From an uncultured SAR86 cluster bacterium (lineage in GTDB: Bacteria; Pseudomonadota; Gammaproteobacteria; Magnimaribacterales; D2472), in assembly GCA_902601475.1 (NCBI GenBank), contig CACKNK010000006.1, positions 1,621 to 65,620 of the forward strand: DNA of 64,000 bases. Direction: 5' to 3'. Both the position numbers and the translations under genes were made by a program. Below are positions 1,876-58,241 of this stretch, in pieces. Each line of letters begins with the position of its first letter. Position 1 is the first letter of the stretch. A model generated the notes under the pieces. The model searched no databases. It saw only the letters and a list, made by a program, of their open reading frames with translations, and was not told the origin of the DNA.

Positions 1876-2966
1876 ATACCTCTAAAAAAATAAATCTACT
1901 TGGACTAACTCAGAGAGAGTTGGAGGAATTCTTTATTGACATTGGAGAGCCTAAATATCGTGCTGTTCAAACTCTTAAGTGGATTCATAAACATGGGTGT
2001 TTAGACTTTGATCAAATGAGCGATCTAAGTGAGGCACTTAGAAAAAAACTTCACAATATTGCTTCCCTAAAGCCACCATTAATCCATCATCAAATGAAAT
2101 CAAAAGATGGAACAATAAAATATTTAATTCAAATTGAATCTGGCTCAATTGTTGAAATGGTTCGCATCCCTTCAGATAACCGACAAACCTTATGTATTTC
2201 CTCTCAGGCCGGATGTGCATTACAGTGCTCTTTTTGTGCAACTGGCGCCCAAGGTTTTGAGGTAAATTTAAGTGCTAGTGAAATCATAGGCCAGCTATGG
2301 CTAGCTAGTTTCCATGACGAAAAATTGCCACCAATTACGAATATAGTTTTTATGGGAATGGGTGAGCCCTTATTAAATATCAAACCTGTTTTAAATAGCG
2401 TTGATTTGATGCTTAATACCAACGCCTATTGCATTTCAAAACGCAAAATTACCTTAAGCACCTCCGGTATTGCTCCCGAGATAGAGTCACTGCCTGATAA
2501 AACTGATGTTTCTTTGGCCCTATCTTTGCACGCACCTAATAATAAACTTCGTGATGAACTAGTACCTATTAACAAAAAATACCCGCTTGAAATGCTGATG
2601 GAGTCATGTAAAAAATACCTTTCATATTTTGGAAAAAGAAAATCAATTACCATTGAGTACATCATGATCAATGATGTTAATGATAGTTACGATCATGCTG
2701 TTCAACTGTCTAATTTACTAAAACAACTAAAGTGCAAGATTAACTTAATTCCCTTTAATTCATTTGAAGGAAATTCATACCAACAATCAAGCTTAGAAAA
2801 TATTAATGTATTTAAGGATTATTTAATCAAGAATGGATTTGTCACAACTGTTAGAATAACAAGAGGAGATGAAGTAGATGGTGCATGTGGACAATTATCT
2901 GGTCAACTACTAAATGCTATAAAATCTAAGAAAAGCTCTAATATTGAATTAAAAAATATTACTTAA
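1872..2966 (+). CDS. rlmN: 23S rRNA/tRNA (adenine-C2)-methyltransferase RlmN, radical SAM; TTG start overlapping the ndk stop
   Basis: [11 protein letters not shown] radical-SAM CxxxCxxC motif, MGMGEPL, C-terminal GACGQL. Confidence 0.93.
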
Positions 2967-2968
2967 TT

Positions 2969-3817
2969 ATGAAAACAGCTTTAAGTGCAAAAATAGGCAA
3001 AAAAATTAAAGAGAAAAGGCTCGAACTTAAGCTAACAATTCATGAAGTATCAAATGAAATCAATTTAACTGAGAAATTTCTTAAGGCCATTGAAAATGGT
3101 GACTATAGTATCTTTCCGGCAAAAGCTTTTGCCAGAGGCTATTTTGTAAAATATACAACTCATCTAGGTTTGGATCTTGAATTTCCGGAACTTGCAAATG
3201 AGGTTTTTGAAGAAGATAAGCTTGCACAGTCCAATCAATCTGCAAAACGTGTAAAGGCTAAAAGCATAAATGATGTTATCGAATCTTATAAAAAACCCTT
3301 ATTAGTTGCAGGAATAATTTTATTTTTATTATTAATTGTTTCAGTTTTAGCAAGTAGCTCATCTGATGAAAACCAAATCAAGTCATCTTCTGATGAAGAA
3401 ACAATAGAAATTAATTCTATACCTTCATCCTCTCTAATAGATGATACACCTATAGATATTGAAGTTCCTGAAAGTTTAGATATGGAATCAAATGATAGTG
3501 AAATTTCTGTTGTTTCAACAAGCAGTAGAACCGATGAAATTAATCAACTTAAAAACATGCCCAAAAACCTTTTGAATTTAAATTTTAATGAAGAAAGTTG
3601 GGTAGAAATTTACTCTGCTGATCCGAGTGATTATTTCCAAGTGGTTTATAAGTTATTTTACGAAAATGAAACTTATCAACTTAAGGTTGAATCTCCACTT
3701 GTTGTAGTGGTTGGTAATGCATCAGGAGTTGTTGGCACATTCAATGATTTACCAATTGATTTTAGTGCTAATGCGAACAGACTTGATGTCAGCGTAATTA
3801 GGCTCTCAAATGGATAG
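2969..3817 (+). CDS. rodZ: cytoskeleton protein RodZ-like (HTH + TM + C-terminal domain)
   Basis: N-terminal XRE-type HTH ([25 protein letters not shown]), one TM segment ([18 protein letters not shown]), acidic/Ser linker. Conserved rlmN-rodZ-ispG order. Confidence 0.8.
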
Positions 3818-4913
3818 GGTTGTTGCGAACAGAAAAACAACAAAGCAGATAACTGTTGGGGATGTACATGTTGGAGGCAAGAGTCCTATCAGCATTCAAT
3901 CTATGACCAATACAAATACCGAAGATGTTGATGCCACTGTAAAGCAAATCAATGAGATTCATGCCGCAGGTGCTGATCTAGTGAGAGTTTCTGTGCCAAC
4001 ACTTGATGCAGCTAAAGCATTCAAAAAGATAAAAAGCGCTGTAGAAATTCCTCTAATCGCTGATATTCATTTCGATTATAAAATTGCTTTGGCAGTAGCA
4101 GATTCAGCAGATTGCCTTCGGATTAATCCAGGAAACATTGGTAAAGAAAATAAGATAAAAGAAGTTATTCAGGCTGCAAAGGATAATGAAATTCCAATTC
4201 GAATAGGAGTTAATGCCGGATCGTTGGAAAAAGAACTTCAAAGAAAATATGGTGAGCCTAACTCAGATGCACTAGTTGAATCTGCACTTAGGCATATCGA
4301 TATACTCAAAAAGTATAATTTTGATAATTTTAAATTAAGTCTAAAAGCTTCCAATATTGATATGACAGTAAACAGCTATCGCAAGATATCAAAATTAATT
4401 GATCAACCACTTCACTTGGGAATTACAGAATCAGGTACCCTGCGATCTGGAGCGGTAAAATCCTCGATTGGAATTGGAATGCTGCTAAGTGAAGGTATTG
4501 GCGATACGATTAGAATTTCACTTGCATCAAATCCTGTTGATGAAGTAAAGGTGGGCTGGGATATTTTAAAAAGTCTTAACTTGCGAAGTCGGGGCGTTAA
4601 AATCATTGCCTGCCCAAGTTGCTCAAGACAAAACTTTGATGTTATCAACGTAGTTAATGAGCTCGAATCAAGATTTGAAGACATTTCAGATGATATTGAA
4701 GTCGCTATAATCGGTTGCTATGTTAATGGTCCAGGGGAATCCAAAGCCGCTGATATAGGTCTTACTGGAGCCTCCCCAAAAAATCTTATGTATATCAATG
4801 GAGAACCAAGTGAAAAAGTTTCTAATGAGTCCCTTGTTGATAGAATTGAATTTGAAGTTCGTGAGCAGTTAAATAGAAATCAAAATGAATCTGATATTAT
4901 TGCTAAAGGTTAG
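3810..4913 (+). CDS. ispG: 4-hydroxy-3-methylbut-2-enyl diphosphate synthase (IspG/GcpE)
   Basis: [18 protein letters not shown] and ACPSCSR motifs. Confidence 0.95.
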
Positions 4914-10151: not shown

Positions 10152-11939
10152 ATGGTAGGTCATTTAAACAAAGATAATATTCAAACATTAGAATTTGATG
10201 CTTTAATTGTTGGGGGCGGTGGTTCTGGAATGCGCACTTCACTTGAGCTTGCTAAATCTGGACTTAAGACAGCTGTAGTATCAAAAGTTTTTCCAACAAG
10301 ATCTCATACAGTTTCTGCTCAGGGTGGAATTACATGTGCGATCCAAAGCGCTGATCCAAATGATGATTGGAGATGGCATATGTTTGATACTGTAAAAGGC
10401 TCAGACTACATCGGTGACCAAGATGCGATTGAATATATGTGTTCGGAAGGACCAAAGGCTGTTTTTGAGTTAGAACATATGGGCTTACCTTTCTCAAGGT
10501 TTGAAAATGGACGTATCTATCAAAGACCATTTGGAGGGCAGTCAAAGGATTTTGGAAATGGGGGACAGGCATCAAGAACCTGTGCTGCAGCAGATAGAAC
10601 AGGCCATGCTCTTCTTCATACTCTTTATCAAAACAATGTTAAGGAAGGCGCAAATTTTTTAAATGAATGGTTTGCTGTTGACTTGGTTAAAAACAAATTC
10701 AGTGAGGTAACGGGCGTAATTGCTTTTTCAATAGAGTCAGGTGAAGTTGCGTATCTTAAGTCTCGTGCAACTGTTCTTGCAACAGGTGGGGCTGGAAGGA
10801 TTTATGCTTCAACTACAAATGCTTTGATTAACACAGGTGATGGATTGGGAATGTCATTAAGAGCAGGTTTTCCAGCTCAAGATATGGAGATGTGGCAATT
10901 CCATCCAACAGGTATTCACGGTGCAGGCTCTCTCGTCACAGAGGGTTGCAGAGGAGAGGGTGGCTATCTAATAAATGCTGACGGAGAAAGATTCATGGAA
11001 AGATATGCTCCTAATGCAAAAGATCTAGCAGGTCGAGATGTTGTTGCTCGATCGATGGTGCTGGAAATACTTGAAGGCAGGGGATGCGGTCCCAATAAGG
11101 ATCATGTTTTGTTAAAACTGGATCATTTGGGTGAGGAGGTTTTAAATGCGAAGCTTCCAGGTATTTGTGAACTCTCAAAAACCTTTGCTGGAGTAGATCC
11201 TGTCTACAAACCCATTCCAGTTGTACCAACCTGTCACTACATGATGGGAGGAACTCCAACGAATATTCATGGTCAAGCATTTACATCTGAAAATGAAATT
11301 GATAATGAGGTTCCTGGTTTATTCTCAGTCGGCGAAGCTGCCTGTGTAAGCGTGCATGGTGCAAATAGACTGGGTGGTAACTCATTACTGGATCTTGTCG
11401 TTTTTGGAAGAGCTGCGGGACTTCATATTAACGAGGATTTAAAATCCGGTGGCGGCGTAGAAGAAGCGAATAGTGATGATATTGAATCAGCTCTTCACAG
11501 GCTTAATAAGCTTAATGAATCTAATTCTGGCTTTGAAGTAGCTGAAGTTAAAAGGGAACTTCAAGAAGTAATGCAGAATTACTTTGGAGTCTTCAGGCGC
11601 GGTGAGTTTATGGAAAAAGGAGTTCAGGCTCTTGAAGAAATAAGAAATAAGTGTGACAACTTACATCTTCATGACAAGAGCGAATCCTTTAATACAAACC
11701 GAGTAGAGGCATTAGAGCTGCAGAATTTACTTGAGGTTGCTGAAGCCACCGCAATCTCCTCCCTCAAGCGAAATGAGAGCCGTGGAGCACATGCCAGAGA
11801 TGATTTTCCTGAAAGAGATGATGAAAATTGGCTCTGTCATTCTCTTTATGATCCTATTAAGAAAGATTTAAAAAAGAGACAAGTTAATTTTGAACCTAAA
11901 ACAATGGAAGCATTCCCTCCGAAGGTTAGGGCCTATTAG
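10152..11939 (+). CDS. sdhA: succinate dehydrogenase flavoprotein subunit
   Basis: GGGGSGMR dinucleotide fold, [10 protein letters not shown] (covalent FAD His), [15 protein letters not shown]. Confidence 0.97.
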
Positions 11940-11954
11940 CACAGAGGATTAGAG

Positions 11955-12701
11955 ATGATTGAAGTAAATATTTATAGATACAATCCTGAGACTGATAAAT
12001 TCCCTTACATGCAGAAGTTTAACTTTGAGATGCCTGATCGAGACATCATGGTTCTTGAGTTATTAAACACTCTCAAAGAATCTGATCCCACTATTTCGTA
12101 CAGAAGATCCTGTCGAGAGGGTGTATGTGGCTCAGATGGCATGAGTATTAATGGCAAAAATGGACTAGCTTGTATTACACCAGTTTCAGAGGTTGCTAAA
12201 GGCAATAAGCTTGAGTTAAGACCTTTGCCAGGACTCCCTGTTGTTAGAGATCTGGTGGTTGATATGACAGAGTTTTACGCACAATACGAAAAGATAAAAC
12301 CCTTTTTACAGAATGATACACCTCCACCCAATCAAGAGCGTCTTCAATCTCCAAGTGATCGTGACAAGCTAGATGGTTTATATGAATGTATTTTATGTGC
12401 ATGTTGTTCAACCAGCTGTCCTTCATTTTGGTGGAATCCAGATAAGTTTGTTGGTCCTGCTGCATTGCTTCAAGCTTATCGATTTATAGCTGATACCCGA
12501 GATACTCGAACCGAAGAAAGATTAGAGTCATTATCTGATCCGTTTAGTGTTTATCGATGTCATGGAATTATGAACTGTGTAAGTGTCTGTCCAAAAGGCC
12601 TCAATCCCAACAAAGCTATTGGAGAAATTAAATCAATGCTTCTAACCAATAAACGTCATGAGGCTGAGATTATTGCATCCGATGGAGGTGGGAGAAGTTA
12701 G
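11955..12701 (+). CDS. sdhB: succinate dehydrogenase iron-sulfur subunit
   Basis: Three Cys clusters: CREGVCGSDGM, CILCACCSTSCP, CHGIMNCVSVCP. Confidence 0.97.
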   Translation: MIEVNIYRYNPETDKFPYMQKFNFEMPDRDIMVLELLNTLKESDPTISYRRSCREGVCGSDGMSINGKNGLACITPVSEVAKGNKLELRPLPGLPVVRDLVVDMTEFYAQYEKIKPFLQNDTPPPNQERLQSPSDRDKLDGLYECILCACCSTSCPSFWWNPDKFVGPAALLQAYRFIADTRDTRTEERLESLSDPFSVYRCHGIMNCVSVCPKGLNPNKAIGEIKSMLLTNKRHEAEIIASDGGGRS

Positions 12702-15514
12702 ATGAGCAGCATGGGGGAGTTTTGGTCAAGTTCTCATACTGCAGGAGGAAATGGCTCCTATTTAGAAGGCCTATTTGAATCTTACTTAGATGACCCAGCT
12801 AGCGTTCCAGAAGATTGGAAAAACTATTTTGATAGTCTTCCAAGCAATCCCTCAGGAACAGATACCTCACATGCAAAAGTCATTGAAAGGTTTAGAAACT
12901 ATAAAAGCAAAGTGTCTTCATCTGTAAAACCTATCAATGAAAAACAAATAAGAGTTCTTCAGTTAATACAGTCTTACAGGAATAGAGGCCATATGAAATC
13001 CTCTTTAGATCCTTTGAACCTCCAAGAGTATGCTCAATGTGATGACTTAACTCTTGAATATCATGGCCTTAATCAAGAAGATCTAGGAAGCATTTTTCAA
13101 ACAGACACCCTTAATATTGGAAAAGAAAGCACGTCTTTATCTGAAATAATTCAATCGCTCGAAAGAATTTACTGTAATACGTTAGGCATTGAATACAACT
13201 ACATTACCAGTGAAGTCGAGAGGAAGTGGTTTCAATCCAGATTAGAGCCAGGCGTTGGAAAAATTAAGCTCTCAAATGAAGAAAGAATTTATATTCTTAA
13301 ACGACTTGGAGCTGCTGACGGACTAGCAAAGTTTTTGGCATCAAGGTATCCAGGAATGAAAAGGTTTGGAATTGAGGGAGCAGAATCATTAATACCTCTC
13401 ATTGATAGCCTCGTTCAGAATACTGGAATTTTTGGTGCTCAACAAATATGTTTTGGGATGGCTCATAGAGGTAGACTTAACTTATTGGTCAACGTTTTAG
13501 GAAAATCACCTAAAGATCTATTCATTGAGTTTGAGGAAGGCTATGAGCTAACTGGAGATAATACTGGTGATGTAAAATATCACTTAGGTGTCTCATCCAA
13601 CATACTAACTCCTAATGGTGAGGTCCATGTTTCTCTGAACAATAATCCATCTCACTTAGAAATAGTGAATCCTGTAATACTTGGCTCAGTGAGGGCAAGA
13701 CAAGATCGCTTGGGGGATACTGAAAGAGAAAAAGTAATACCAATATTAATTCATGGAGATGCATCTTTTTCAGGTCAAGGCGTGGTAATGGAATCGCTGC
13801 AAATGTCTCAAACCAGAGCATATGGGGTCGGTGGAGCCATCCACGTAATTGTTAACAATCAGATCGGTTTCACCACTTCCAACAAAGAAGATGCAAGATC
13901 AACGCATTATTCAACTGACGTAGCTAAAATGATTGAGGCTCCAATTCTGCATGTTAATGCTGATGATCCTGAGATGGTTGTATTTGCAGCAAAACTCGCC
14001 TGTGAGTACAGACATACTTTTAAAAAGGATATTGTTATAGACATGGTCTGTTTCAGACGAAGAGGTCATAACGAAACCGATGATCCATCTCAGACTCAAC
14101 CACAAATGTATCAAGCTGTTGCGTCACATCCTGGAATTAAAAAGCTCTATCAAGATCAACTTATTGAGGATAACGTGATAAGTCTTGATGAATGTAAAAA
14201 TTTTGAAAAAAAATATAGAGAAACTATTGAGCAAGGAGAGTCTGTTGCACATAATCTTGCTACAAAGCCTAATGAATCAATGTGGTTTGATTGGAATCCC
14301 TACATGAATCAAGAATGGTGGGATTTTGCTGATACCACATTTAATCCTAAACAATTCGCTAAACTTGGCTCCATAATTTCATCAATTCCCGAAGGCTTTG
14401 AACTTCAAAAACCCGTAACAAAACTTTTTGAAGATAGGCAAAAAATGAATAACGGAGAAGCTAAGATTAACTGGGGTTTTGCTGAAATAATGGCGTATGC
14501 AACTCTACTCCATGAGGGCTATCCAGTAAGACTGACTGGTCAGGATGTTAGGAGGGGAACTTTTTCTCATCGTCATGCTGTTGTTCACAATAAAATAGAT
14601 GGAAATGCTGAGATGCCATTAATGCAAATTGCTGATCAGTCAAAAACAAATTTAGAAATCTACGATTCTTTATTATCTGAGGAAGCTGTTCTGGGGTTTG
14701 AGTATGGATATTCTGCAACGTGGCCATCAGGACTAGTGATTTGGGAAGCTCAATTTGGTGACTTTGCTAATGGAGCTCAAGTAGTTATAGATCAATTCAT
14801 AGTATCTGCTGAGCATAAATGGGAAAGACTATCTGGTTTGGTTATGCTTCTACCTCATGGATATGAGGGTCAAGGTCCTGAGCATAGCTCAGCTAGACTT
14901 GAGAGATTTCTTCAGCTTTGTGCCTTCAAGAATATACAAGTTTGTGTTCCAAGCACTCCGTCACAAATATTTCACCTACTAAGACAACAGGCAAAAAGAA
15001 ACTTGAGGAAACCTCTTATAATTTTTTCCCCCAAAAGCTTACTTCGAAATCCAGACGCTGTTTCTACCCTTGAGGATCTGACGAGTGGTACTTATGAGCT
15101 TGTTATTAATGATGGTGATGATGAGGAGTCGGAAATCAAAAAGGTGGTTATGTGCTCAGGAAAACTTTACTACGATTTAAAGACAAAGCAACGAGAACTT
15201 GAAGACAAAACTACTGCTCTCATAAGGATTGAACAGCTTTATCCATTTCCATACGATGAGCTTGAGGATGCTATAAAGAAATATCCTAATGTATCAGAGT
15301 TTATCTGGGCTCAAGAAGAGCCAGCCAATCAAGGAGCATGGTTTAGTCATCGCCATCGCATACAAAGAGTTCTAGATAGATTGAAGAAAAATTTTGTCAT
15401 TGATCTACGAAGCAGGCCAGCTGCTGCAGCACCTGCAGTAGGCTTAAATAAACTACATGTTAAGCAGCAACAAGAATTAGTAGATCAAGTATTTAGTGTT
15501 TTGGAGAAAATAAA

Positions 15515-43846: not shown

Positions 43847-44719
43847 ATGGTAGTAATTAGACTTGCAAAGAGTGGGGCAAAGAAAAACCCATATTTCTTT
43901 ATCACAGTAGCTGACTCTAGAATGCCTAGAGACGGTAGATTCATAGAAAGACTAGGTTTTTACAACCCATCTGCAAGAGGTTCTGAGGAAAGACTTCGTT
44001 TTAATACTGAGCGCTTTGATCATTGGGTCGGCCAAGGTGCACAAGTTTCAGATCGTGTGAAGGTTTTGCATCAAGAGGCTGAAATGTCTCCTGAAGATCT
44101 GGCTGCTAAATTCGAAAAAAGGGATTCTAAACGTCAAGCAAAAAAAGAAGCTAAAGCAGCAAAACTTGCAGAAGAAATGGCTGCATCTGAAGAGGCTGCA
44201 CCGGCAGAAGAGACTCCAGTAGAAGAAGCTCCAGCCGAAGAAGCCGCACCAGCAGAAGAAGCTCCAGCTGAGGAAGAAGCTCCAGCCGAAGAAGCTGCAC
44301 CAGCAGAAGAGGCTCCAGCTGAAGAAGCTGCACCTGCAGAAGAGGCTCCAGCTGAAGATGCTGCACCCGCAGAAGAGGCTCCAGTAGAAGAAGCTCCAGC
44401 TGAAGAAGAAGCTCCAGCTGAAGAAGCTGCACCAGCAGAAGAGGCTCCAGCTGAAGAAGCTGCACCTGCAGAAGAGGCTCCAGCTGAAGAAGCTGCACCA
44501 GCAGAAGAGGCTCCAGTAGAAGAAGCTCCAGCTGAAGAAGAAGCTCCAGCTGAAGAAGCTGCACCAGCAGAAGAGGCTCCAGCTGAAGAAGCTGCACCTG
44601 CAGAAGAGGCTCCAGCTGAAGAAGCTGCACCAGCAGAAGAGGCTCCAGTAGAAGAAGCTCCAGCTGAAGAAGAAGCTCCAGCTGAAGAAGATTCTCCATC
44701 AGATGACGAAAAGAAGTAA
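43847..44719 (+). CDS. rpsP: 30S ribosomal protein S16 with an approx. 210-aa acidic Glu/Ala/Pro-rich C-terminal extension
   Basis: First ~80 aa are canonical S16 ([35 protein letters not shown]). The same frame continues through ([11 protein letters not shown])n to TAA at 44717-44719. Confidence 0.9.
44216..44690 (+). repeat. coding tandem repeat in the rpsP tail: 132-bp unit (4 x 33-bp sub-units)
   Basis: 44381-44512 and 44513-44644 are identical base for base (checked by hand). 44645-44690 is a 46-nt partial third copy. 44216-44380 is a diverged 165-bp copy. Confidence 0.95.
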
Positions 44720-45227
44720 TTCTTTAGACGATAGCCACATATTAATTGGACGAATAGGTAGACCAAGAGGTCTCAAAGGTGAGTTTTTCATAAACTCATT
44801 TTCTGAATCATCAGAAGCTTTTTTAAAATATAAAAACTTTTTTCTTTATTCTGAATCAGAACTCGTTCCTGTTGATTTTGACTATTTAAAGAAACAGAAC
44901 CAGAAAATTATTGGAAAAATATCAGATATCAATACACCTGAAGATGCAGAAAGAATTAAAAATTCAGACCTTTTTTTGGATAAAAATGACCTTCCTGAAT
45001 TAGAAGACGGTTATTACTGGCATGAATTGTTAGGCATGAAGGTAATTAATTTAGATGGTGACGCTCTTGGAGAAGTGATTGCTATTAATAATTATGGATC
45101 AAACGACATGCTCGAAGTGAAGACCAAGAAGAAAAAACTACTTATTCCTTTTGTTAAAAACAGAATAATTTTTGATATCGATAAAGAAAAGAAAGTTATT
45201 AACGTTGATTGGTATGATTCCTACTGA
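44703..45227 (+). CDS. rimM: 16S rRNA processing protein RimM
   Basis: [15 protein letters not shown]-terminus. Position in rpsP-rimM-trmD-rplS. Confidence 0.9.
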
Positions 45228-45983: not shown

Positions 45984-46592
45984 ATGTCAGATAAAGAAAT
46001 TGAAAACAACGCTTCTAACGAAGAAGCATCGGAAACAGTAGAAACTCCAGAATCAGTGGATTCTACTCCCGAAACAGCTGAAACTGTTGTTGAAGCTGAG
46101 GAAGCTTCAGCGCCTGAAGAATCTGTCCCTGAAGCACCCGCTGAGACTCCCGAACCTGAAGCAGATGTTCCTGCAGAAGAAGCTAGTGCTGCTGTGGAAG
46201 AGCCAGCTGAAGCTGTTTCAACAGCTAAGCTAGAAGAATTGTCGCCGGCGCAAATAGTTCAAAATTTCGAAAAATCTCAGTTAAAAGATGATGTACCTCC
46301 TTTTAGACCAGGAGATACTGTTGTTGTTTCAGTAAAAGTTAAAGAAGGTGAAAGAACTAGACTTCAAGCTTTTGAAGGCGTTGTTATGCACATCAAAAAT
46401 GCTGGTTTAAACTCATCATTCATCGTTAGAAAAATATCCAGCGGTATTGGTGTAGAAAGAACATTTCAAGTTCACAGCCCCATAATTGATTCCATCAAAG
46501 TTAAGCGTAAGGGCGACGTTAGAAAAGCTAAACTCTATTATTTAAGAGAGAGATCTGGAAGATCTGCTAGGATCAAAGAAAGACTCGAATAA
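45984..46592 (+). CDS. rplS: 50S ribosomal protein L19 with an approx. 85-aa acidic N-terminal extension (alternative in-frame TTG at 46239 would give a canonical-length protein)
   Basis: C-terminal 117 aa collinear with E. coli L19 ([29 protein letters not shown]). Upstream 85 codons are stop-free and E/A/P/T/S/V-rich. Confidence 0.85.
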
Positions 46593-51542: not shown

Positions 51543-54500
51543 TTGCAGAGAATTTATTCAAAACTACTTTTATTAACACTATTTAGCACCTCCATTGTTG
51601 CTCAAGAGCAAATTGGTGTGGCTGCTGCAGTCAACCGTAATACTACTGACCTAACGCTGGAACAAGAAAGAAAACTCGTTGAAGCGGGTTATCAAATCAT
51701 TCAAAACCATACCATTGAAACCGATGAAATCGGTAAAGCTCAGATGCTCTTACTCGATGGAACCGCTTTCTCAGTTGGACCTAATTCAAGCGTGGTGCTT
51801 GATCGTTTTATTTATAATCCGGAAACAGCGGAAGGTTCCTTAGAAGTAACCGCACGAGGTCTTTTAAGAATTGTTGGTGGAAAGGTCACCAAAAAACAAC
51901 CCGCGCTGATAAGAACTAATTCAGCAACTGTGGGGATCAGAGGCGGAATCGGAATTGTCCAAACCGATGGCTCGCAAGTCAATGCGACCTTCTTGTACGG
52001 TGAGGAAATGACAGTGACCCCAAATTGTGTGGATCTTGATACGTTTGGCGATCAATGCGGTAGCGATTTTATTACCACCATCACCGAACCAGGTTTTTCA
52101 GTGACGGTTGAGTCAGCTGACTCTGAACCTTCAGAACCTGAGCCGGTAACTGAAGAAAGCTTAGAAGCCGTTCAAGATGAATTAGAGGCCAGTGAAGATG
52201 AGCCAGCCGAAGAAGAATCTTCAAGTGATGAATCTTCTTCAGAAGAAAGCTCTGATGAATCAAGTTCTGAAGAGTCCTCAAGCGAAGAGAGTTCAGATGA
52301 GTCTAGCTCAGAGGAATCTTCAAGCGAAGAGAGTTCTGATGAATCCTCTAGTGAAGAAAGCTCAGATGATTCAAGTTCTGACGAATCATCTAGTGATGAG
52401 TCCTCCTCAGATGAGTCTTCCAGCGATGAATCTTCTGCTGATGATTCAGTTGCCAGCGATAGCTCATCCGATGATGCATCTTCAGATTCATCAAGTGATG
52501 AACCTACTAATGAAGTTGCTCAAGAAACAGAATCAGATACTGAAGTTACGACTGAAGTTGCTGATGCTGGTGGTGATGGTGGAACAACTGAAGTTGAAGT
52601 TGATGAGGGACTTTTAGATAGCTCTGGAGTCTCTGATGTTTCTTCTGATGTGGCCCCTGATGAACTGGGTACCGCCGATGCGTTTGAAGTTGAAACCGAA
52701 GTTGATTTAGTTGATGTGGATGAGAGTCCAGCCGAAGAAGTCACCGAAGAAGTTGCGCAAACCACCCAAGAAACCACTGCAGAGGTCGCACCCATTTTTG
52801 AAGTGGAAACTACTGAAGTGGTTGAAAGTGTCGATGAAAATACGACTGAGATCAGCTTGGCATCTTTTGCTGTAGTCAATCCAGGCGATCAAAACTTTAC
52901 TGTGTCTGTCGAAGGTGAGGGCAGTGAGGCCTTTACTTATAACGAAGCAACCAACTCCTTAGAAATTACTGAAGCTTTGGATCATGAAAGCCAAGAAGCG
53001 GTTGAACTGACCGTGACCTTTACCAGCGAAAATGGTGATGTTCAAGAAGTTGCCTTAGCTTTAAATGTTGCTGATGTGGATGAAGCCGTTGAACTTGCTG
53101 TTGAACCGGTCAACACCATTAGTGAAGCTGCTATTAGTGCTGAACTCGTTGCCAATCAGGTCAATGTATCTGAAACGGTACCCGCTGGAACTGTGGTGGC
53201 TACTTTTAGTGCCACTGATCCTGAGGGCAATGCCTTAACTTATTCATTAACTGGAGCCGGTAGTGAACTGATGAGCGTTTCTGAAACCGGAGAAGTGACC
53301 CTTACTGGTAATCTAGATTTTGAAACGAATTCAACCCTAGTCATGACATTGGAAGTCTCTGATGGGACTAATACCACCACCGAAGAAATTACTATTAACG
53401 TTATTAACGATGATGAGCCTGCCACCATTGCAGCGACTTTAAGTGCTACCTCATTTGCAGAAAACTCTGCTGTGGGAGCTGCCATTGCATCGGTGAATGC
53501 CACCGATCCTGAAGGCAGTGCGGTGACTTACACATTATCAGGCACAGGCAGCGATAACTTTAGTATTGATACCAGCGGTAACATTACTCTTGCCAGCACC
53601 TTGGATTATGAAACGACAACCTCATATGAACTAACCGTCGTTGTCGATGATGGCACTTATGCTTCTACTGAAGTCATCACCGTGAGTGTTGCCGACGTCA
53701 ATGAAGCCCCAACATTAAGCGCAACGGTAGCCTTCAACGCTTTCCAAGAAAATACTGCTACCGGTACCACGATTGCTACGAGTTCAGTCACCGATCCGGA
53801 GGCAGGAGCCATTACGTACAGTCTTTCTGGCACCGGCAGTGAGAACTTTTCAGTCAGTTCTGATGGTACGGTGAGTTTAGCGAGCACCCTGGATTATGAA
53901 ACTGCCACTGGATATGAAATTACCCTAACAGCCTCCGATGGCGATAATACCGTTTCTGAAATCCTCACTATCAATGTGGGCGATATTAATGAAGCGCCAA
54001 CCGTTACCACAACTCTAGCAACCTCAAGTGTTGCAGAAGATGCAGCCACCGGAACTACCGTTGCGACCAGCACAGCAAGCGATCCAGAGTCCAGCACCAT
54101 CACTTATTCACTCAGCGGAACCGGTAGTGATAACTTTAGCGTTGATGCCAACGGTAATGTCACTGTGGCTAGTAGCTTAGATTATGAAACGACCACCTCT
54201 TATACCATTACTTTAACCGCTAGCGACGGGTCCAATTCAACCCAAGAAACCATCACCATTAATGTCAGTGACGTGGATGAATTTACTCTGGCACTTTCAA
54301 GTACGTCACCTGCTATTAACGAAGGCGTCAGCACTGGAACTCAAGTCGCTACTTCAACCTTAACCCAGCAAGACAGTGCTTCAGTAACTTATTCTTTATC
54401 AGGTACTGGCAGCGATAAGTTTGCCATTTCCAGCAGTGGGGTGATTACCACCGCAGCAGCGATGGATTTTGAAACCACCTCATCCTATTCACTCACTGTA

Positions 54501-57500
54501 ACTGTCACTGATGGGACTAATACTGATACTGAAACCATTAATATTAGTATTAATAATGTTTCTCTTAATACTCTAGCAACCACTTTAGCCAACAGCGGGG
54601 CAGCGCTGGCTGAATCATCCAGCTCAGGCACAGCTGTTGCTAGCTCCAGCATCAACAACCCCGACAGTGAAACGATTACCTATACGCTAAGCGGTACCGG
54701 TAGCAACAAATTCTCTGTTGATTCATCAGGAAATGTGACCACTAACGGAACGCTGGATTTTGAAACGGCTAAAAGCTATGCGCTAACTCTAACCGCCACT
54801 GCAGGCAGCACGTCAGTGACCGACACCTTTACAGTTAATGTCGGTAACGTAGCTGAGCTTAATGCAGCGGTGCTTCGCTATTCAGCAGCTTACAACTCAG
54901 TTTCACGCACTGGCTTTAGTGCCACTGCAACGCGAGGAGCTTCAGGATCGAGCTTACCAGCCTACTACTTAGAGCAAGTTGGTACGACTGCCACAACAAA
55001 TTTCAATGATGTTTTTGATCATGACGGTGATGTTCGAAACAACCATAGCCCTACAGTTAGAGTGGAAATTGGTGGTGGAACCCAACTTAACTTTGAGTAT
55101 ATTTTTCCAATAACCTCTCTTGGGGGCGCTGCAGGGGTTTATGCTCCAAGTATGTACGGCAGTTATGGTGTTGTGAATACAACTGTTCTCGGTAATAATG
55201 CTGCATATAGAGGGATTCTGACCAACCAAATATTAGCGGCTGCTGACGTGGTTGGTACTACCGGAAATTCACCTACCATAACTGATAATGAGATTGTAAG
55301 TGCCGGTGCATTCATGCAATATTCGGGATCAGGAAACGGCGTAAACGCATCAACAGGCGGCGATTTCGCCTTTATGACAACAAATTTAGCTGGTGCGTCT
55401 CTAAGCTACCAATCCTCAAGTGGACAACGCACGTATGGAGTCATTGTTGGTGATACTTCAACAAGTTACGGTAGCGGTTACACTGGAGTGGGCAGCTATT
55501 GGCAAAATGCGATTACCGGAGCTGGCTACACATTTCAAAATTGTGTGGCTGCCAACGTTAAGACTTGTCTTAATAATGCAGGCATTGATCTTGATGATGT
55601 AGGAATTATCGTAAATAACAGCCCTGGTACCGTTACATTTGGTTATAGCTACAGTGAACTTGCCGATTGGATTGATGGTGGAGGAAATTATGCTGCCACC
55701 ATGTGGGAACATTCGGGTTGGAGCACAAGAGGTATGAATGGCGACCAACATGAAGATATTTTTGCAGGCCTTGGGTGGAGTGGTTTTAGTGGTAATACCG
55801 TTGGTGGCCACGTAAGTCCTAGTACTTCAATTTCACAATCAACTGTTGATGCAATCACTAATGGCGGAGGTACTTTAAATTATTCAGCCCTTGTAGGTAG
55901 AACTCACTCCTTCAATGCGGCCGGGATTATGAACATCCCATCAGTTTGTAACTCTTTGGTAAATGGGACAATTAGTGGTGCCAGCGGCGCTTCAACTTTC
56001 ATCTGTGATCCAGGACGAACCGGTTCAAACGGTGCTGTTTTAGGGGTAGCAGATTACAATGCGTATACGTCTTCAGGTAGTGGTAATTCATTCATCATGA
56101 ATTGGTTTGCGGGTTTGAATATTGGCTCTGCAGTCACTTCCACCTACAACCTCTTTGAAGATCAAACAACTTTAGCAGGTCAAATTTATACCGATGCCAT
56201 GTGGGACACATTTGTTGGTTGTACTTCTGGTGATTGCTCTGATAAGTTTTCAGGAAATATACTTTATTTTGCTGTATTGCCTATTGAGTATCTAGGCACC
56301 AGTCTTAACTTAGATTCTGATAACTGGTTTTATCCTAACTTTATGCCCATGACCAATTCAAACATTTGGACCTATGGAGACGTGGGGTTACGTTATTGCT
56401 CTCCAGGAGCCAATGCTGGTTCTGAATGTTCCAGCCATACCTATGATGATGCTTATGCATGGCAATCGCTAGCCTTAAATCCTGTGTCCTCCTCAAGCCT
56501 CCACACAAATTCAAGAGAATATGATGTGGGGGGGAATGATATTCCTGAGGGCTCAAGCTTCTTTAAGCAAATGGTTAAATATGATGGAGTGGGTGTCGGG
56601 ATGTGGGCACAAATTTCCTTCGCTGACTCATATGCCGACGATAGTGATGCCAGTAATACTAGAGATGATCAACAAAGCTTACTCAATGTAGTAATCACAA
56701 ACATGAATCGACGCAGCAACATGACCTCGATGTACTCAGCCGGAGACAGCGGTTTTGGGATGGATGGTTATCATTATTGGTCCTATCAAGGGGCGACCAA
56801 TGCCAATGATAATGGTCTCGGAGTTGTTTACGGTACGTCACCGGTAGAATGCGCTACTTCCAATGAAACTGCTTGTTTCTGGGCACCGGATGCTAAAGAG
56901 TCAGCCGGCGGTACCGGCAATCCTTCAGACACTGCAGCTCCAAGTGCAATGTTCTTAACGTCTTCAGATCCATATGCATCAGGAAATATGGGATTAGGTG
57001 TTTCTTATAACGCTAACACCGATGCTTTTTTAACCGGTTCTTTTAATCAGGCTTTAATCAGACAAAATGTAAAAAATGGCAATGGTAATTGGCGGTCTTA
57101 CACCGATACCAGTACTTATCGAAAAACTAATTTAGGTCAGAACTCTTTCCCATCAAGCGGCTCGAGCACTTCAGGCACTTTAGATTGGAGTGGGTACTTT
57201 AATGGTATTTTGGAGTTTGATGTAAGCGGTGCCAGCAACAATCAATTCGCTTCCATTGGAACAGGCAGTACCCGAGCAAGCTTTACTTTTAATTATGGCA
57301 CTAACTTTGCTGAGGTCGTGGCGCCAATGGATATTACTGCATTTGCTTCAAATAATTACACAGCAAATTGGACCACTGTTGATACTGGCTCGATGACCTT
57401 AAAATTTGGAGACCTTGACAATACCGATGCAAAATCTGCATTTTTAGCCAATAAAGTTTTTGCTGCTGAAATTCAAGATGATGGCACACAGATTGATAGT

Positions 57501-58241
57501 ACTTCTGGTGGTTCCAACAATCTCGCTGGCGTTATGGTTACTTGGCAGAGCCTTGATAATCCTGATTCAACTTTGTACAACGGAATGTCGAATGTAGGTA
57601 ATGGCGATGCATTTAGTGATACTCAAGGGAATGCTAACTACGCATCATGGGGTTTTTGGGCTATGAGTTCTGCTGATATTGCTGTAGCTACCGGCGATCA
57701 AAACGCCTCGGTGCATTTAGGTACCTGGGTTGGCGGAGAACTCATCGATCAAAGTTTAATTCCAACCTCAGGATCGGCAAATATGAATGGAGGGGCAGTG
57801 TTTAATGTGGCTTATCGACATAATGCAAGCGGCACTGATTACGACGTGCATAAATACACCAGCACCGCAGATGTTAGCGCAACTTTTAATTGGGGTACAA
57901 GCGGATATTCAGGATCTATAACTTTTGAAAACTTTGATGATAAGAATCCAATTGTAGCGAATGCCGGCTTCTTTGATATCAATGGTTTCTTTACAGTGCC
58001 AATTGTTGGCACCGATCAACATTACAGCGGGAGCCTAACACCAAGCATGCAAAATGGCTGGTCGGGCACTGCATCAGTCAAGGGAAGTCTTTACGGCGGT
58101 CAATATACTGCGTATGGGGTTACACATACAGTGAGAGAAAGCGGAGGAAGCTTTGACGTAAATATTTACAAGACTGGCGATACTTCAACTGCTGGAGCTA
58201 ATGATTTTTATACGGCAGAAGGTATTTATTTAATCTATTAA
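51543..58241 (+). CDS. giant secreted surface/adhesin-like protein (2,232 aa): signal peptide, FecR-like domain, poly-Ser/Asp/Glu tract, cadherin-like repeats, large unassigned C-terminal region
   Basis: Uninterrupted 6.7-kb ORF. TTG start with GGGAG about 10 nt upstream. Signal peptide MQRIYSKLLLLTLFSTSIVA. Repeats visible by eye in the translation. Confidence 0.9.
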   Translation: MQRIYSKLLLLTLFSTSIVAQEQIGVAAAVNRNTTDLTLEQERKLVEAGYQIIQNHTIETDEIGKAQMLLLDGTAFSVGPNSSVVLDRFIYNPETAEGSLEVTARGLLRIVGGKVTKKQPALIRTNSATVGIRGGIGIVQTDGSQVNATFLYGEEMTVTPNCVDLDTFGDQCGSDFITTITEPGFSVTVESADSEPSEPEPVTEESLEAVQDELEASEDEPAEEESSSDESSSEESSDESSSEESSSEESSDESSSEESSSEESSDESSSEESSDDSSSDESSSDESSSDESSSDESSADDSVASDSSSDDASSDSSSDEPTNEVAQETESDTEVTTEVADAGGDGGTTEVEVDEGLLDSSGVSDVSSDVAPDELGTADAFEVETEVDLVDVDESPAEEVTEEVAQTTQETTAEVAPIFEVETTEVVESVDENTTEISLASFAVVNPGDQNFTVSVEGEGSEAFTYNEATNSLEITEALDHESQEAVELTVTFTSENGDVQEVALALNVADVDEAVELAVEPVNTISEAAISAELVANQVNVSETVPAGTVVATFSATDPEGNALTYSLTGAGSELMSVSETGEVTLTGNLDFETNSTLVMTLEVSDGTNTTTEEITINVINDDEPATIAATLSATSFAENSAVGAAIASVNATDPEGSAVTYTLSGTGSDNFSIDTSGNITLASTLDYETTTSYELTVVVDDGTYASTEVITVSVADVNEAPTLSATVAFNAFQENTATGTTIATSSVTDPEAGAITYSLSGTGSENFSVSSDGTVSLASTLDYETATGYEITLTASDGDNTVSEILTINVGDINEAPTVTTTLATSSVAEDAATGTTVATSTASDPESSTITYSLSGTGSDNFSVDANGNVTVASSLDYETTTSYTITLTASDGSNSTQETITINVSDVDEFTLALSSTSPAINEGVSTGTQVATSTLTQQDSASVTYSLSGTGSDKFAISSSGVITTAAAMDFETTSSYSLTVTVTDGTNTDTETINISINNVSLNTLATTLANSGAALAESSSSGTAVASSSINNPDSETITYTLSGTGSNKFSVDSSGNVTTNGTLDFETAKSYALTLTATAGSTSVTDTFTVNVGNVAELNAAVLRYSAAYNSVSRTGFSATATRGASGSSLPAYYLEQVGTTATTNFNDVFDHDGDVRNNHSPTVRVEIGGGTQLNFEYIFPITSLGGAAGVYAPSMYGSYGVVNTTVLGNNAAYRGILTNQILAAADVVGTTGNSPTITDNEIVSAGAFMQYSGSGNGVNASTGGDFAFMTTNLAGASLSYQSSSGQRTYGVIVGDTSTSYGSGYTGVGSYWQNAITGAGYTFQNCVAANVKTCLNNAGIDLDDVGIIVNNSPGTVTFGYSYSELADWIDGGGNYAATMWEHSGWSTRGMNGDQHEDIFAGLGWSGFSGNTVGGHVSPSTSISQSTVDAITNGGGTLNYSALVGRTHSFNAAGIMNIPSVCNSLVNGTISGASGASTFICDPGRTGSNGAVLGVADYNAYTSSGSGNSFIMNWFAGLNIGSAVTSTYNLFEDQTTLAGQIYTDAMWDTFVGCTSGDCSDKFSGNILYFAVLPIEYLGTSLNLDSDNWFYPNFMPMTNSNIWTYGDVGLRYCSPGANAGSECSSHTYDDAYAWQSLALNPVSSSSLHTNSREYDVGGNDIPEGSSFFKQMVKYDGVGVGMWAQISFADSYADDSDASNTRDDQQSLLNVVITNMNRRSNMTSMYSAGDSGFGMDGYHYWSYQGATNANDNGLGVVYGTSPVECATSNETACFWAPDAKESAGGTGNPSDTAAPSAMFLTSSDPYASGNMGLGVSYNANTDAFLTGSFNQALIRQNVKNGNGNWRSYTDTSTYRKTNLGQNSFPSSGSSTSGTLDWSGYFNGILEFDVSGASNNQFASIGTGSTRASFTFNYGTNFAEVVAPMDITAFASNNYTANWTTVDTGSMTLKFGDLDNTDAKSAFLANKVFAAEIQDDGTQIDSTSGGSNNLAGVMVTWQSLDNPDSTLYNGMSNVGNGDAFSDTQGNANYASWGFWAMSSADIAVATGDQNASVHLGTWVGGELIDQSLIPTSGSANMNGGAVFNVAYRHNASGTDYDVHKYTSTADVSATFNWGTSGYSGSITFENFDDKNPIVANAGFFDINGFFTVPIVGTDQHYSGSLTPSMQNGWSGTASVKGSLYGGQYTAYGVTHTVRESGGSFDVNIYKTGDTSTAGANDFYTAEGIYLIY
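51690..52020 (+). other. FecR-like beta-sandwich domain of the giant protein (approximate bounds)
   Basis: GKAQMLLLDGTAFSVGPNSSVVLDRFIYNP...LEVTARGLLRIVGGKV...ATVGIRGG resembles FecR/LipL45-type domains (pattern recognition only). Confidence 0.5.
52190..52505 (+). repeat. poly-Ser/Asp/Glu low-complexity coding tract: (SSSEE-SSDE-SSSEE)x3 then (SSSDE)x4
   Basis: About 105 aa, nearly all S, D or E. Peptide repeats are exact but encoded with different Ser/Glu/Asp codons in each unit. Confidence 0.95.
52855..54860 (+). repeat. tandem array of cadherin-like domains (1 degenerate + 6 clear, ~97 aa each)
   Basis: Recurring V.E...GT.VAT..ATDPE....TYSLSGTGS..F.....G.VT....LDYET..SY.LT..A.DG......I.INV.DVNEAP. 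Approximate unit boundaries: 53160, 53441, 53723, 54013, 54294, 54583. Confidence 0.8.
57640..58238 (+). other. C-terminal beta-barrel-like module of the giant protein (TbpB-type or OM-anchor-type; speculative)
   Basis: Alternating-residue strands separated by Gly/Asn/Ser turns (GSANMNGGAVFNV, VSATFNWGTSGYSGSITF, ASVKGSLYGG, YTAEGIYLIY) with a terminal aromatic residue. Confidence 0.35.

Follow-up and report, generated by a model that had tools for sequence, protein, structure and literature searches.

A giant SAR86 envelope protein with a FecR domain, a cadherin stalk and a predicted TbpB-like terminal lobe, and its possible link to a CHASE2 cyclase

We analysed a window of 64,000 nucleotides (nt) from an uncultured SAR86 cluster bacterium (assembly GCA_902601475.1, contig CACKNK010000006.1, positions 1,621 to 65,620 of the forward strand). 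A giant open reading frame (ORF) of 2232 amino acids (aa) with a TTG start (51543..58241, + strand) spans the whole of the feature studied here, a C-terminal region at nt 54861-58238 that corresponds exactly to aa 1107-2232, the last 1,126 aa after the final cadherin unit. From its N-terminus the protein comprises a signal peptide, a FecR domain, an acidic linker, a cadherin stalk, ~740 aa of disulfide-stapled domains, and one lobe of the type found in TbpB (Table 1). The signal peptide and FecR domain, at the far end of the protein from this region, are new relative to a first-pass annotation of the same DNA. We suggest, at a probability of about 0.5 and by analogy with the NsrA-CyaK pair of Sinorhizobium meliloti, that the protein may be a surface sensor feeding a CHASE2 cyclase.

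The last ~356 aa probably form a single TbpB/fHbp-type lobe, a handle followed by an eight-stranded β-barrel. An AlphaFold2 model of aa 1847-2232 has ~10 strands and then eight long strands, with a predicted local distance difference test score (pLDDT) of 84.8 and a predicted template-modelling (TM) score of 0.87. The model was built on an 87-sequence alignment from a search with remote seeds; this second alignment was needed because a mixed-seed profile search (alignment A3) gave mainly close SAR86 relatives. In a Foldseek search of the PDB with this model, TbpB, LbpB and HpuA fill almost all of the top 22 places (probability 0.94-1.00, E 2e-6 to 1e-4), and fHbp ranks lower in the list. The Foldseek matches have low TM-scores (0.2-0.37), as their targets have two lobes or are chimeras. 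Searching PDB sequences with a sequence profile of the module returned four matches at E<=10, all of them barrels (NHBA/GNA2132, TbpB, fHbp) and all falling exactly on the predicted barrel, with the pattern G-x-A-x-Y-x-G ... F-x-G ... G-x-F-Y-G. The handle aligns with those of remote relatives through the motifs LxFGD...SAY...FAA...WGxW, and remote relatives give weak matches to Pfam FHBP_C (16-20 bits, below the cut-off of 28.1). For aa 1107-2232 itself no Pfam or NCBIfam match was obtained at E<=1, and the same was true of the TbpB_B_D and FHBP_C models.

The first-pass annotation had likened the last ~450 aa, with their two rhythmic stretches, to the handle-plus-barrel lobes of TbpB and HpuA. 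At the level of fold the likeness is borne out by the model, by Foldseek and by the profile matches to the PDB; the two stretches are also present, but the first is the handle and the second the barrel of a single lobe, in a module of ~356 aa, and not two similar lobes. We rejected the two-lobe reading, as a search of the region against itself detected no similarity between handle and barrel. In the terminal module the model and Foldseek gave both a handle and a barrel, and no homology to a hydrolase, lectin or protease.

The same annotation had raised the possibility that the final strand, with its terminal Tyr, is an outer-membrane β-signal. In that case the last strands would be a transmembrane barrel inserted by the β-barrel assembly machinery (BAM), serving as an integral outer-membrane anchor, and both the alternating hydrophobic end (...AEGIYLIY) and the presence of porins among the lower Foldseek matches would be accounted for. 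We consider this reading largely refuted. In the 122 relatives whose ends are intact, the chain terminates in Asp 94 times, in Cys 9 times, in Tyr 8 times and in Gln 8 times, with terminal Tyr confined to the nearest relatives; in 17 of the 122 the last strand is followed by a short additional Cys loop (of the CENGGC or CTSGTCQ type), and remote relatives end variously in ...GVRQ, ...ILSE or ...GGKR. Because the terminal aromatic residue is not conserved, we rejected a BAM β-signal. The porins, moreover, score probabilities of 0.1-0.7 against the 0.94-1.0 of the top 22 TbpB, LbpB and HpuA matches, and the PDB profile matches are all to soluble barrels.

The Cys residues of the region point to a location outside the cytoplasm. 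There are ten in aa 1107-2232, grouped without exception in five close pairs, as previously described: within-pair spacings are 8, 19, 5, 10 and 8 residues and between-pair gaps 54-141, an arrangement with a chance probability of ~5e-5 (200,000 trials, 10 Cys placed randomly in 1126 positions). In a 20-sequence alignment, pairs 228/236 and 363/382 (region numbering) disappear jointly in homologues, pair 454/459 is restricted to the closest relatives, and pairs 513/523 and 664/672 are invariant. The pairs are therefore gained and lost as units, which is the behaviour that disulfides predict; it supports the earlier proposal of disulfide-stapled loops and fits an oxidising, extracytoplasmic compartment. 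Together with the signal peptide, the covarying pairs mark the protein as extracytoplasmic, as judged from sequence. The region was also correctly described as repeat-free and rich in G, S, T, N, Y and W: self-BLAST found no internal repeats in aa 1107-2232, where G, S, T, N, Y and W account for 12.7, 12.0, 9.5, 8.8, 5.3 and 2.0 % of the residues. The cadherin part contains neither W nor C (0 % each).

The whole 1,126-aa unit is kept at 42-77% identity in ~50 metagenomic proteins. A scan of one genome per species returned 50 loci, nearly all in SAR86 single-cell or metagenome-assembled genomes, the best of them 98% identical; L011, L026, L041 and L053 lie in bins labelled Marinovum, Nitrosopelagicus, Methanobacteriota and Rhodobacterales and are probably mis-binned SAR86 contigs. 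An exhaustive profile search raised the number of relatives to 221, of which the remote ones share only the last ~350 aa. Relatives of 1530-1570 aa lack cadherins but share both the FecR N-terminus and the C-terminal module, and even the shortest, at 550-607 aa, have both the FecR domain and the terminal module. The FecR domain is 65-98% identical among SAR86 paralogues and 35-43% identical in alphaproteobacterial relatives. By sequence comparison, then, the protein belongs to a wider proteobacterial family in which the FecR domain at one end and the terminal lobe at the other stay constant and the middle varies.

SAR86 genomes carry several paralogues each, some in tandem, and their N- and C-terminal halves are mosaic in similarity. 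At L013, L014, L018, L020, L023, L031, L037, L044, L048 and L055 a second FecR start lies directly after the module of the first gene. Locus L036 has 84% DNA identity over the first 3.5 kb of the gene and 98% protein identity in the FecR N-terminus, with only ~50% protein identity in the C-terminal region; such halves with different closest relatives suggest recombination among copies of the family. Multiple, partly tandem and mosaic paralogues are typical of surface proteins, and one might ask whether the protein is simply a giant adhesin or surface-layer protein, its barrel only a signal for export and anchoring, its stalk and Cys-stapled domains attaching to particles or cells, and its FecR domain non-signalling. 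Seven cadherin units, a large extracellular-type region, and the lack of a cyclase near the window copy would all suit such a role. We nevertheless think it unlikely, since the FecR domain and terminal module are kept even in the 550-607-aa relatives that have no adhesin-like middle, and since linkage to a CHASE2 cyclase holds across distant lineages.

The genes of this family usually lie close to one for a CHASE2 cyclase and one for a TPR/barrel protein; their SAR86 neighbourhoods also hold genes for a DUF481 protein and a channel that binds cyclic nucleotide monophosphates (cNMP). The alphaproteobacterial-type loci differ among themselves. In L004 and on a Shinella plasmid (L006, NZ_CP093338) a gene for a 400-470-aa TPR protein is followed by the FecR gene and then by one for a CHASE2 adenylate/guanylate cyclase. 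The TPR protein is also encoded upstream of the FecR gene in L003, where none of the called genes is a cyclase, and in L005 the cyclase lies downstream of the FecR gene and the TPR protein is absent. At least 15 SAR86 loci share a cassette in which a DUF481 outer-membrane protein and the CHASE2 cyclase are encoded on one strand, and the TPR protein and the giant protein on the opposite one. Just beyond this cassette, in 12 loci whose flank reaches far enough, lies a cNMP-binding ion channel, a plausible output of the cassette cyclase. The channel (Ion_trans + cNMP_binding), often accompanied by an MscS channel, is found at L001:2041-2862, with equivalents in L012, L019, L021, L022, L024, L032, L040, L042, L045 and L049. 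In L040 the cassette occupies the same chromosomal site as the window gene, with 90% identity downstream, and the single-cell genome AH-287-C22 has both an orphan copy syntenic with the window (L054) and a cassette-linked copy (L036).

Two of these neighbourhoods have further genes of note. In L005 a 580-aa protein with RTX calcium-binding repeats and a cadherin domain is encoded upstream of the FecR/module gene on the opposite strand (L005:5457-7199, -), in the place of the TPR protein. In L006, NHLP-type bacteriocin export genes (C39 peptidase ABC transporters) flank the trio of TPR, FecR and CHASE2 cyclase genes on both sides (2292-4292 and 10665-14442).

The neighbourhoods also bear on the proposal, made in the first-pass annotation, of TbpB-style ligand capture. 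The terminal lobe would bind a dissolved nutrient or protein and pass it to a TonB-dependent transporter, as TbpB, HpuA and hemophilin do; the lobe architecture is shared with TbpB, LbpB and HpuA, the long cadherin stalk would lengthen the reach of the capture domain, and SAR86 genomes are rich in TonB-dependent receptors. No such receptor, however, was called in any of the five annotated neighbourhoods (L001-L005); the conserved neighbours are instead the cyclase, the TPR/barrel protein, the DUF481 protein and the cNMP channel. The handle, which in TbpB-type proteins binds the ligand, resembles no known binder in sequence. Nor does the protein have a lipobox, because its signal peptide (MQRIYSKLLLLTLFSTSIVAQ-EQ in the translation of the window protein) contains no Cys, although a lipobox is not required of soluble type-11 cargo such as hemophilin. 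As nutrient capture would in addition leave the FecR domain at the other end unexplained, we consider it quite improbable.

If instead the giant protein is a surface sensor, its parts might act as follows. After export by Sec, the C-terminal barrel would dock to, or be translocated by, the TPR/barrel outer-membrane protein, in the manner of the cargo barrel of type-11 (Slam) secretion. The cadherin stalk and Cys-stapled domains would then be displayed outside the cell, while the FecR domain would remain periplasmic and touch the CHASE2 domain of the cyclase. Binding of a ligand at the surface, or contact, would alter synthesis of cyclic AMP or cyclic GMP and so gate the channel. The window copy would have lost its adjacent partners and would rely on those that accompany a paralogue at another site in the genome.

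Several observations weigh against this proposal. A tblastn search of the 64-kb window with the cassette proteins found no CHASE2 cyclase, TPR/barrel protein or cNMP channel, so the cyclase link for the window copy rests on its paralogues. The TPR partner, which has a signal peptide, TPR repeats and ~300 further residues that probably form a barrel, was screened against Pfam, NCBIfam and the PDB for membership of the Slam family and did not reach the DUF560 thresholds: its resemblance to Slam is sub-threshold (SlipAM, E 0.0026-0.1; TPR_Slam, E 0.005-0.007), and other outer-membrane-protein families score similarly (DUF2860, BBP2_2, OMP_b-brl_3, PgaA). No DUF560 (Slam) gene was found in the 64-kb window. 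All sequence matches of the lobe to TbpB-family models are likewise sub-threshold, and ~740 aa of the protein have no assigned fold or function apart from a weakly ThuA-like domain. The topology, with an outward stalk and a periplasmic FecR domain, is a predicted one, and known type-11 cargo cross the membrane completely. Finally, NsrA could not be aligned by BLASTP or hhalign with the SAR86 protein or its TPR partner beyond the level of TPR repeats and shared Pfam families, and the C-terminus of NsrA is a different, true outer-membrane barrel.

A different topology would place the whole protein in the periplasm as a scaffold, the lobe bound, on the periplasmic side, to the partner's TPR domain, the FecR domain binding CHASE2, and the middle staying between them. 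The TbpB-type barrel is a soluble domain and family members of ~600 aa could span the periplasm; NsrA, moreover, fuses FecR to TPR and barrel, for which a non-covalent contact between lobe and TPR could substitute. Yet a run of cadherin repeats and Cys-stapled domains ~1,650 aa long would be hard to fit in the periplasm, and bacterial cadherin-type repeats are typically extracellular, and we judge a periplasmic scaffold very improbable. Returning to a sensor exposed at the surface, we put forward more tentatively, as a possibility we would not yet favour, that the system is a new trans-envelope device: a type-11-like outer-membrane protein would hold or thread a cadherin-stalked sensor by its TbpB-like end, the FecR domain would switch a CHASE2 cyclase, and the cyclic nucleotide would gate a channel.

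The part of the region that precedes the lobe is less well defined. An AlphaFold2 model of the whole 1,126 aa (20 sequences) had a mean pLDDT of 44 and was confident solely at region residues ~190-420 (aa ~1296-1526). In Foldseek the best match of this alpha/beta domain was the ThuA-like structure 4e5v (probability 0.97, E 0.038, TM-target 0.48), followed by amidotransferase domains of CTP synthase; the query was taken from the poor whole-region model and no sequence family matched, and we treat a ThuA-like fold as a weak lead. In most homologues (P0005-P0013 etc., alignment A1 columns 677-678) this domain carries a vicinal Cys-Cys, in the motif HSGGCC; the window protein has Ser-Thr at that position (aa 1394-1395, nt ~55722-55727). 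The most conserved segment (aa ~1527-1876) gave no Pfam or PDB matches, and its model has a pLDDT below 50. Searches of PDB sequences with aa 1107-2232, by phmmer or by hmmsearch with a whole-region profile, found nothing, as did Pfam and NCBIfam searches with the region in two pieces and with 14 homologues.

Table 1. Features of the giant SAR86 protein and its C-terminal region, in window coordinates
Feature	Nucleotides	Strand	Basis and remarks
TTG start and Sec-type signal peptide MQRIYSKLLLLTLFSTSIVAQ	51543..51602	+	Translation; same N-terminus in homologues P0035, P0037, P0041
FecR domain, aa 57-153	51711..52001	+	Pfam PF04773, E 3.3e-6, 27.9 bits (cut-off 24)
Acidic Ser/Glu/Asp-rich low-complexity linker, ~aa 195-470 (~270 aa)	52125..52952	+	Read from translation; no family match
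Cadherin/Ig-like repeat stalk, ~7 units	52953..54860	+	Pfam Cadherin E 1e-73, 7 stretches within aa 1-1106, plus Cadherin_FAT4_N and Big_9
Beta-rich segment, aa 1107-1295	54861..55427	+	No family matches; model pLDDT 23-42, uninterpretable
Alpha/beta domain with Cys pairs 1 and 2, aa ~1296-1526	55428..56120	+	pLDDT ~75-86, alternating strand/helix; weakly ThuA-like/class-I glutamine-amidotransferase-like
Most conserved segment with Cys pairs 3-5, aa ~1527-1876	56121..57170	+	Invariant columns are dense at 426-730 of alignments A1 and A2; motifs such as GMDGYHYWSYQGATNA
Cys-pair motifs 1-5	55536-55568, 55941-56006, 56217-56237, 56394-56429, 56844-56876	+	All five motifs quoted in the first-pass annotation located
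Predicted handle domain of TbpB-like lobe, aa ~1879-2065, ~10 strands	57177..57737	+	Model residues 33-219, mostly pLDDT >80
Predicted eight-stranded beta-barrel, TbpB/fHbp/NHBA type, aa ~2078-2232	57774..58238	+	Strands at model residues 232-385, pLDDT 82-97

The chromosomal setting of the giant ORF is one of housekeeping genes: groEL, rpsP, rimM, trmD, rplS, xerD, dsbC, hom and thrC, plus a GNAT gene, lie upstream, and a CMD-family gene, prfB and lysS lie downstream. Two of the ribosomal protein genes encode acidic extensions. The rpsP product (S16; window 43847-44719, +, 290 aa) has a normal S16 core and then ~200 aa of PAEEA-type acidic repeats, which give rise to long spurious ORFs on the opposite strand (44134-44766 and 44151-44699). 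The rplS product (L19; window 45984-46592, +) has an acidic N-terminal extension of ~85 aa, rich in Glu, Ala and Pro, before its conserved core.

SAR86 bacteria are uncultured, very abundant, and streamlined in genome. That such a genome keeps a multi-paralogue family of proteins of more than 2,000 aa implies that the family must repay its cost. The conserved cassette with its cNMP-binding channel joins TbpB/type-11 cargo barrels, FecR envelope proteins and CHASE2 cyclases, which are separate topics in the literature that we searched. If the protein is indeed a sensor, it would offer a streamlined planktonic cell a route to sense surfaces, particles or macromolecules, and would provide a protein partner for the CHASE2 sensor domain. 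The idea embodied in NsrA-CyaK would then extend beyond rhizobia. If the more tentative trans-envelope device is correct, the TbpB-type barrel would be a general docking module, serving signalling as well as nutrient capture, and CHASE2 domains would gain a defined protein input.

Compared with TbpB, LbpB, HpuA, fHbp and NHBA, which are surface lipoproteins of Neisseria and Pasteurellaceae, the SAR86 protein is alike in lobe architecture and in its barrel motif (SGxAxYxG ... G..F.F ... F.G ... GxFYG-like). It differs in having one lobe and not two, placed at the end of 2,232 aa, without a lipobox and without a match at the level of Pfam; no TonB-dependent receptor partner was seen in L001-L005, and SAR86 is a free-living marine bacterium. 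A second comparison is with the cargo of type-11 (Slam/DUF560) systems, for example hemophilin HphA, NilC and Pls, whose defining feature is an 8-strand barrel at the C-terminus, after an N-terminal part that varies (PMC12282271). Relatives of the SAR86 protein adjoin an outer-membrane protein with TPR repeats plus a probable barrel, which is the architecture of Slam, with weak SlipAM and TPR_Slam matches; the SAR86 protein is, however, far larger and carries a FecR domain, and its partner falls below the DUF560 thresholds. In the published survey of type-11 cargo, terms for FecR, cyclase and cadherin each occur 0 times (PMC12282271).

In S. meliloti, both NsrA, an outer-membrane protein, and CyaK, a CHASE2 cyclase, are needed to perceive a plant signal (PMC7529298; PMC13001267), and the β-barrel portion of NsrA is given as amino acids 600-1200 (PMC7529298). 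Directly upstream of cyaK on pSymB we found a gene whose 1197-aa product has a FecR domain and TPR repeats; its C-terminal part ends in ...VKVRF. We take this protein to be NsrA, a length of 1197 aa being consistent with 'amino acids 600-1200'. NsrA and the SAR86 family are both outer-envelope proteins in which a signal peptide is followed by FecR, and a CHASE2 cyclase gene adjoins each of them, in the SAR86 family at the cassette loci. NsrA, however, unites FecR, TPR and an integral barrel in a single chain, whereas here TPR and barrel form a separate protein, and FecR is fused through a variable middle to a predicted soluble TbpB-type lobe. Differences in architecture and at the C-terminus, and the lack of any alignable sequence, led us to reject NsrA as an orthologue, and we regard it as an analogue.

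Clusters of a CHASE2 cyclase, a FecR protein of the outer membrane and a TPR protein are also reported in Campylobacterota (PMC9239204), and SMc02177, which adjoins cyaD1 in S. meliloti, is a further FecR protein (PMC5498481); the FecR domain of a remote relative of the SAR86 protein is 31% identical to that of an SMc02177-type gene. The Campylobacterota clusters and the SMc02177/cyaD1 pair follow the same three-gene logic as the family described here, but those reports include no TbpB-like module, cadherin stalk or cNMP-gated channel. We conclude that the SAR86 protein is a variant of the TbpB-type/type-11 cargo barrel, and may also be one of FecR-CHASE2 envelope signalling, that is new in an ecologically important lineage.

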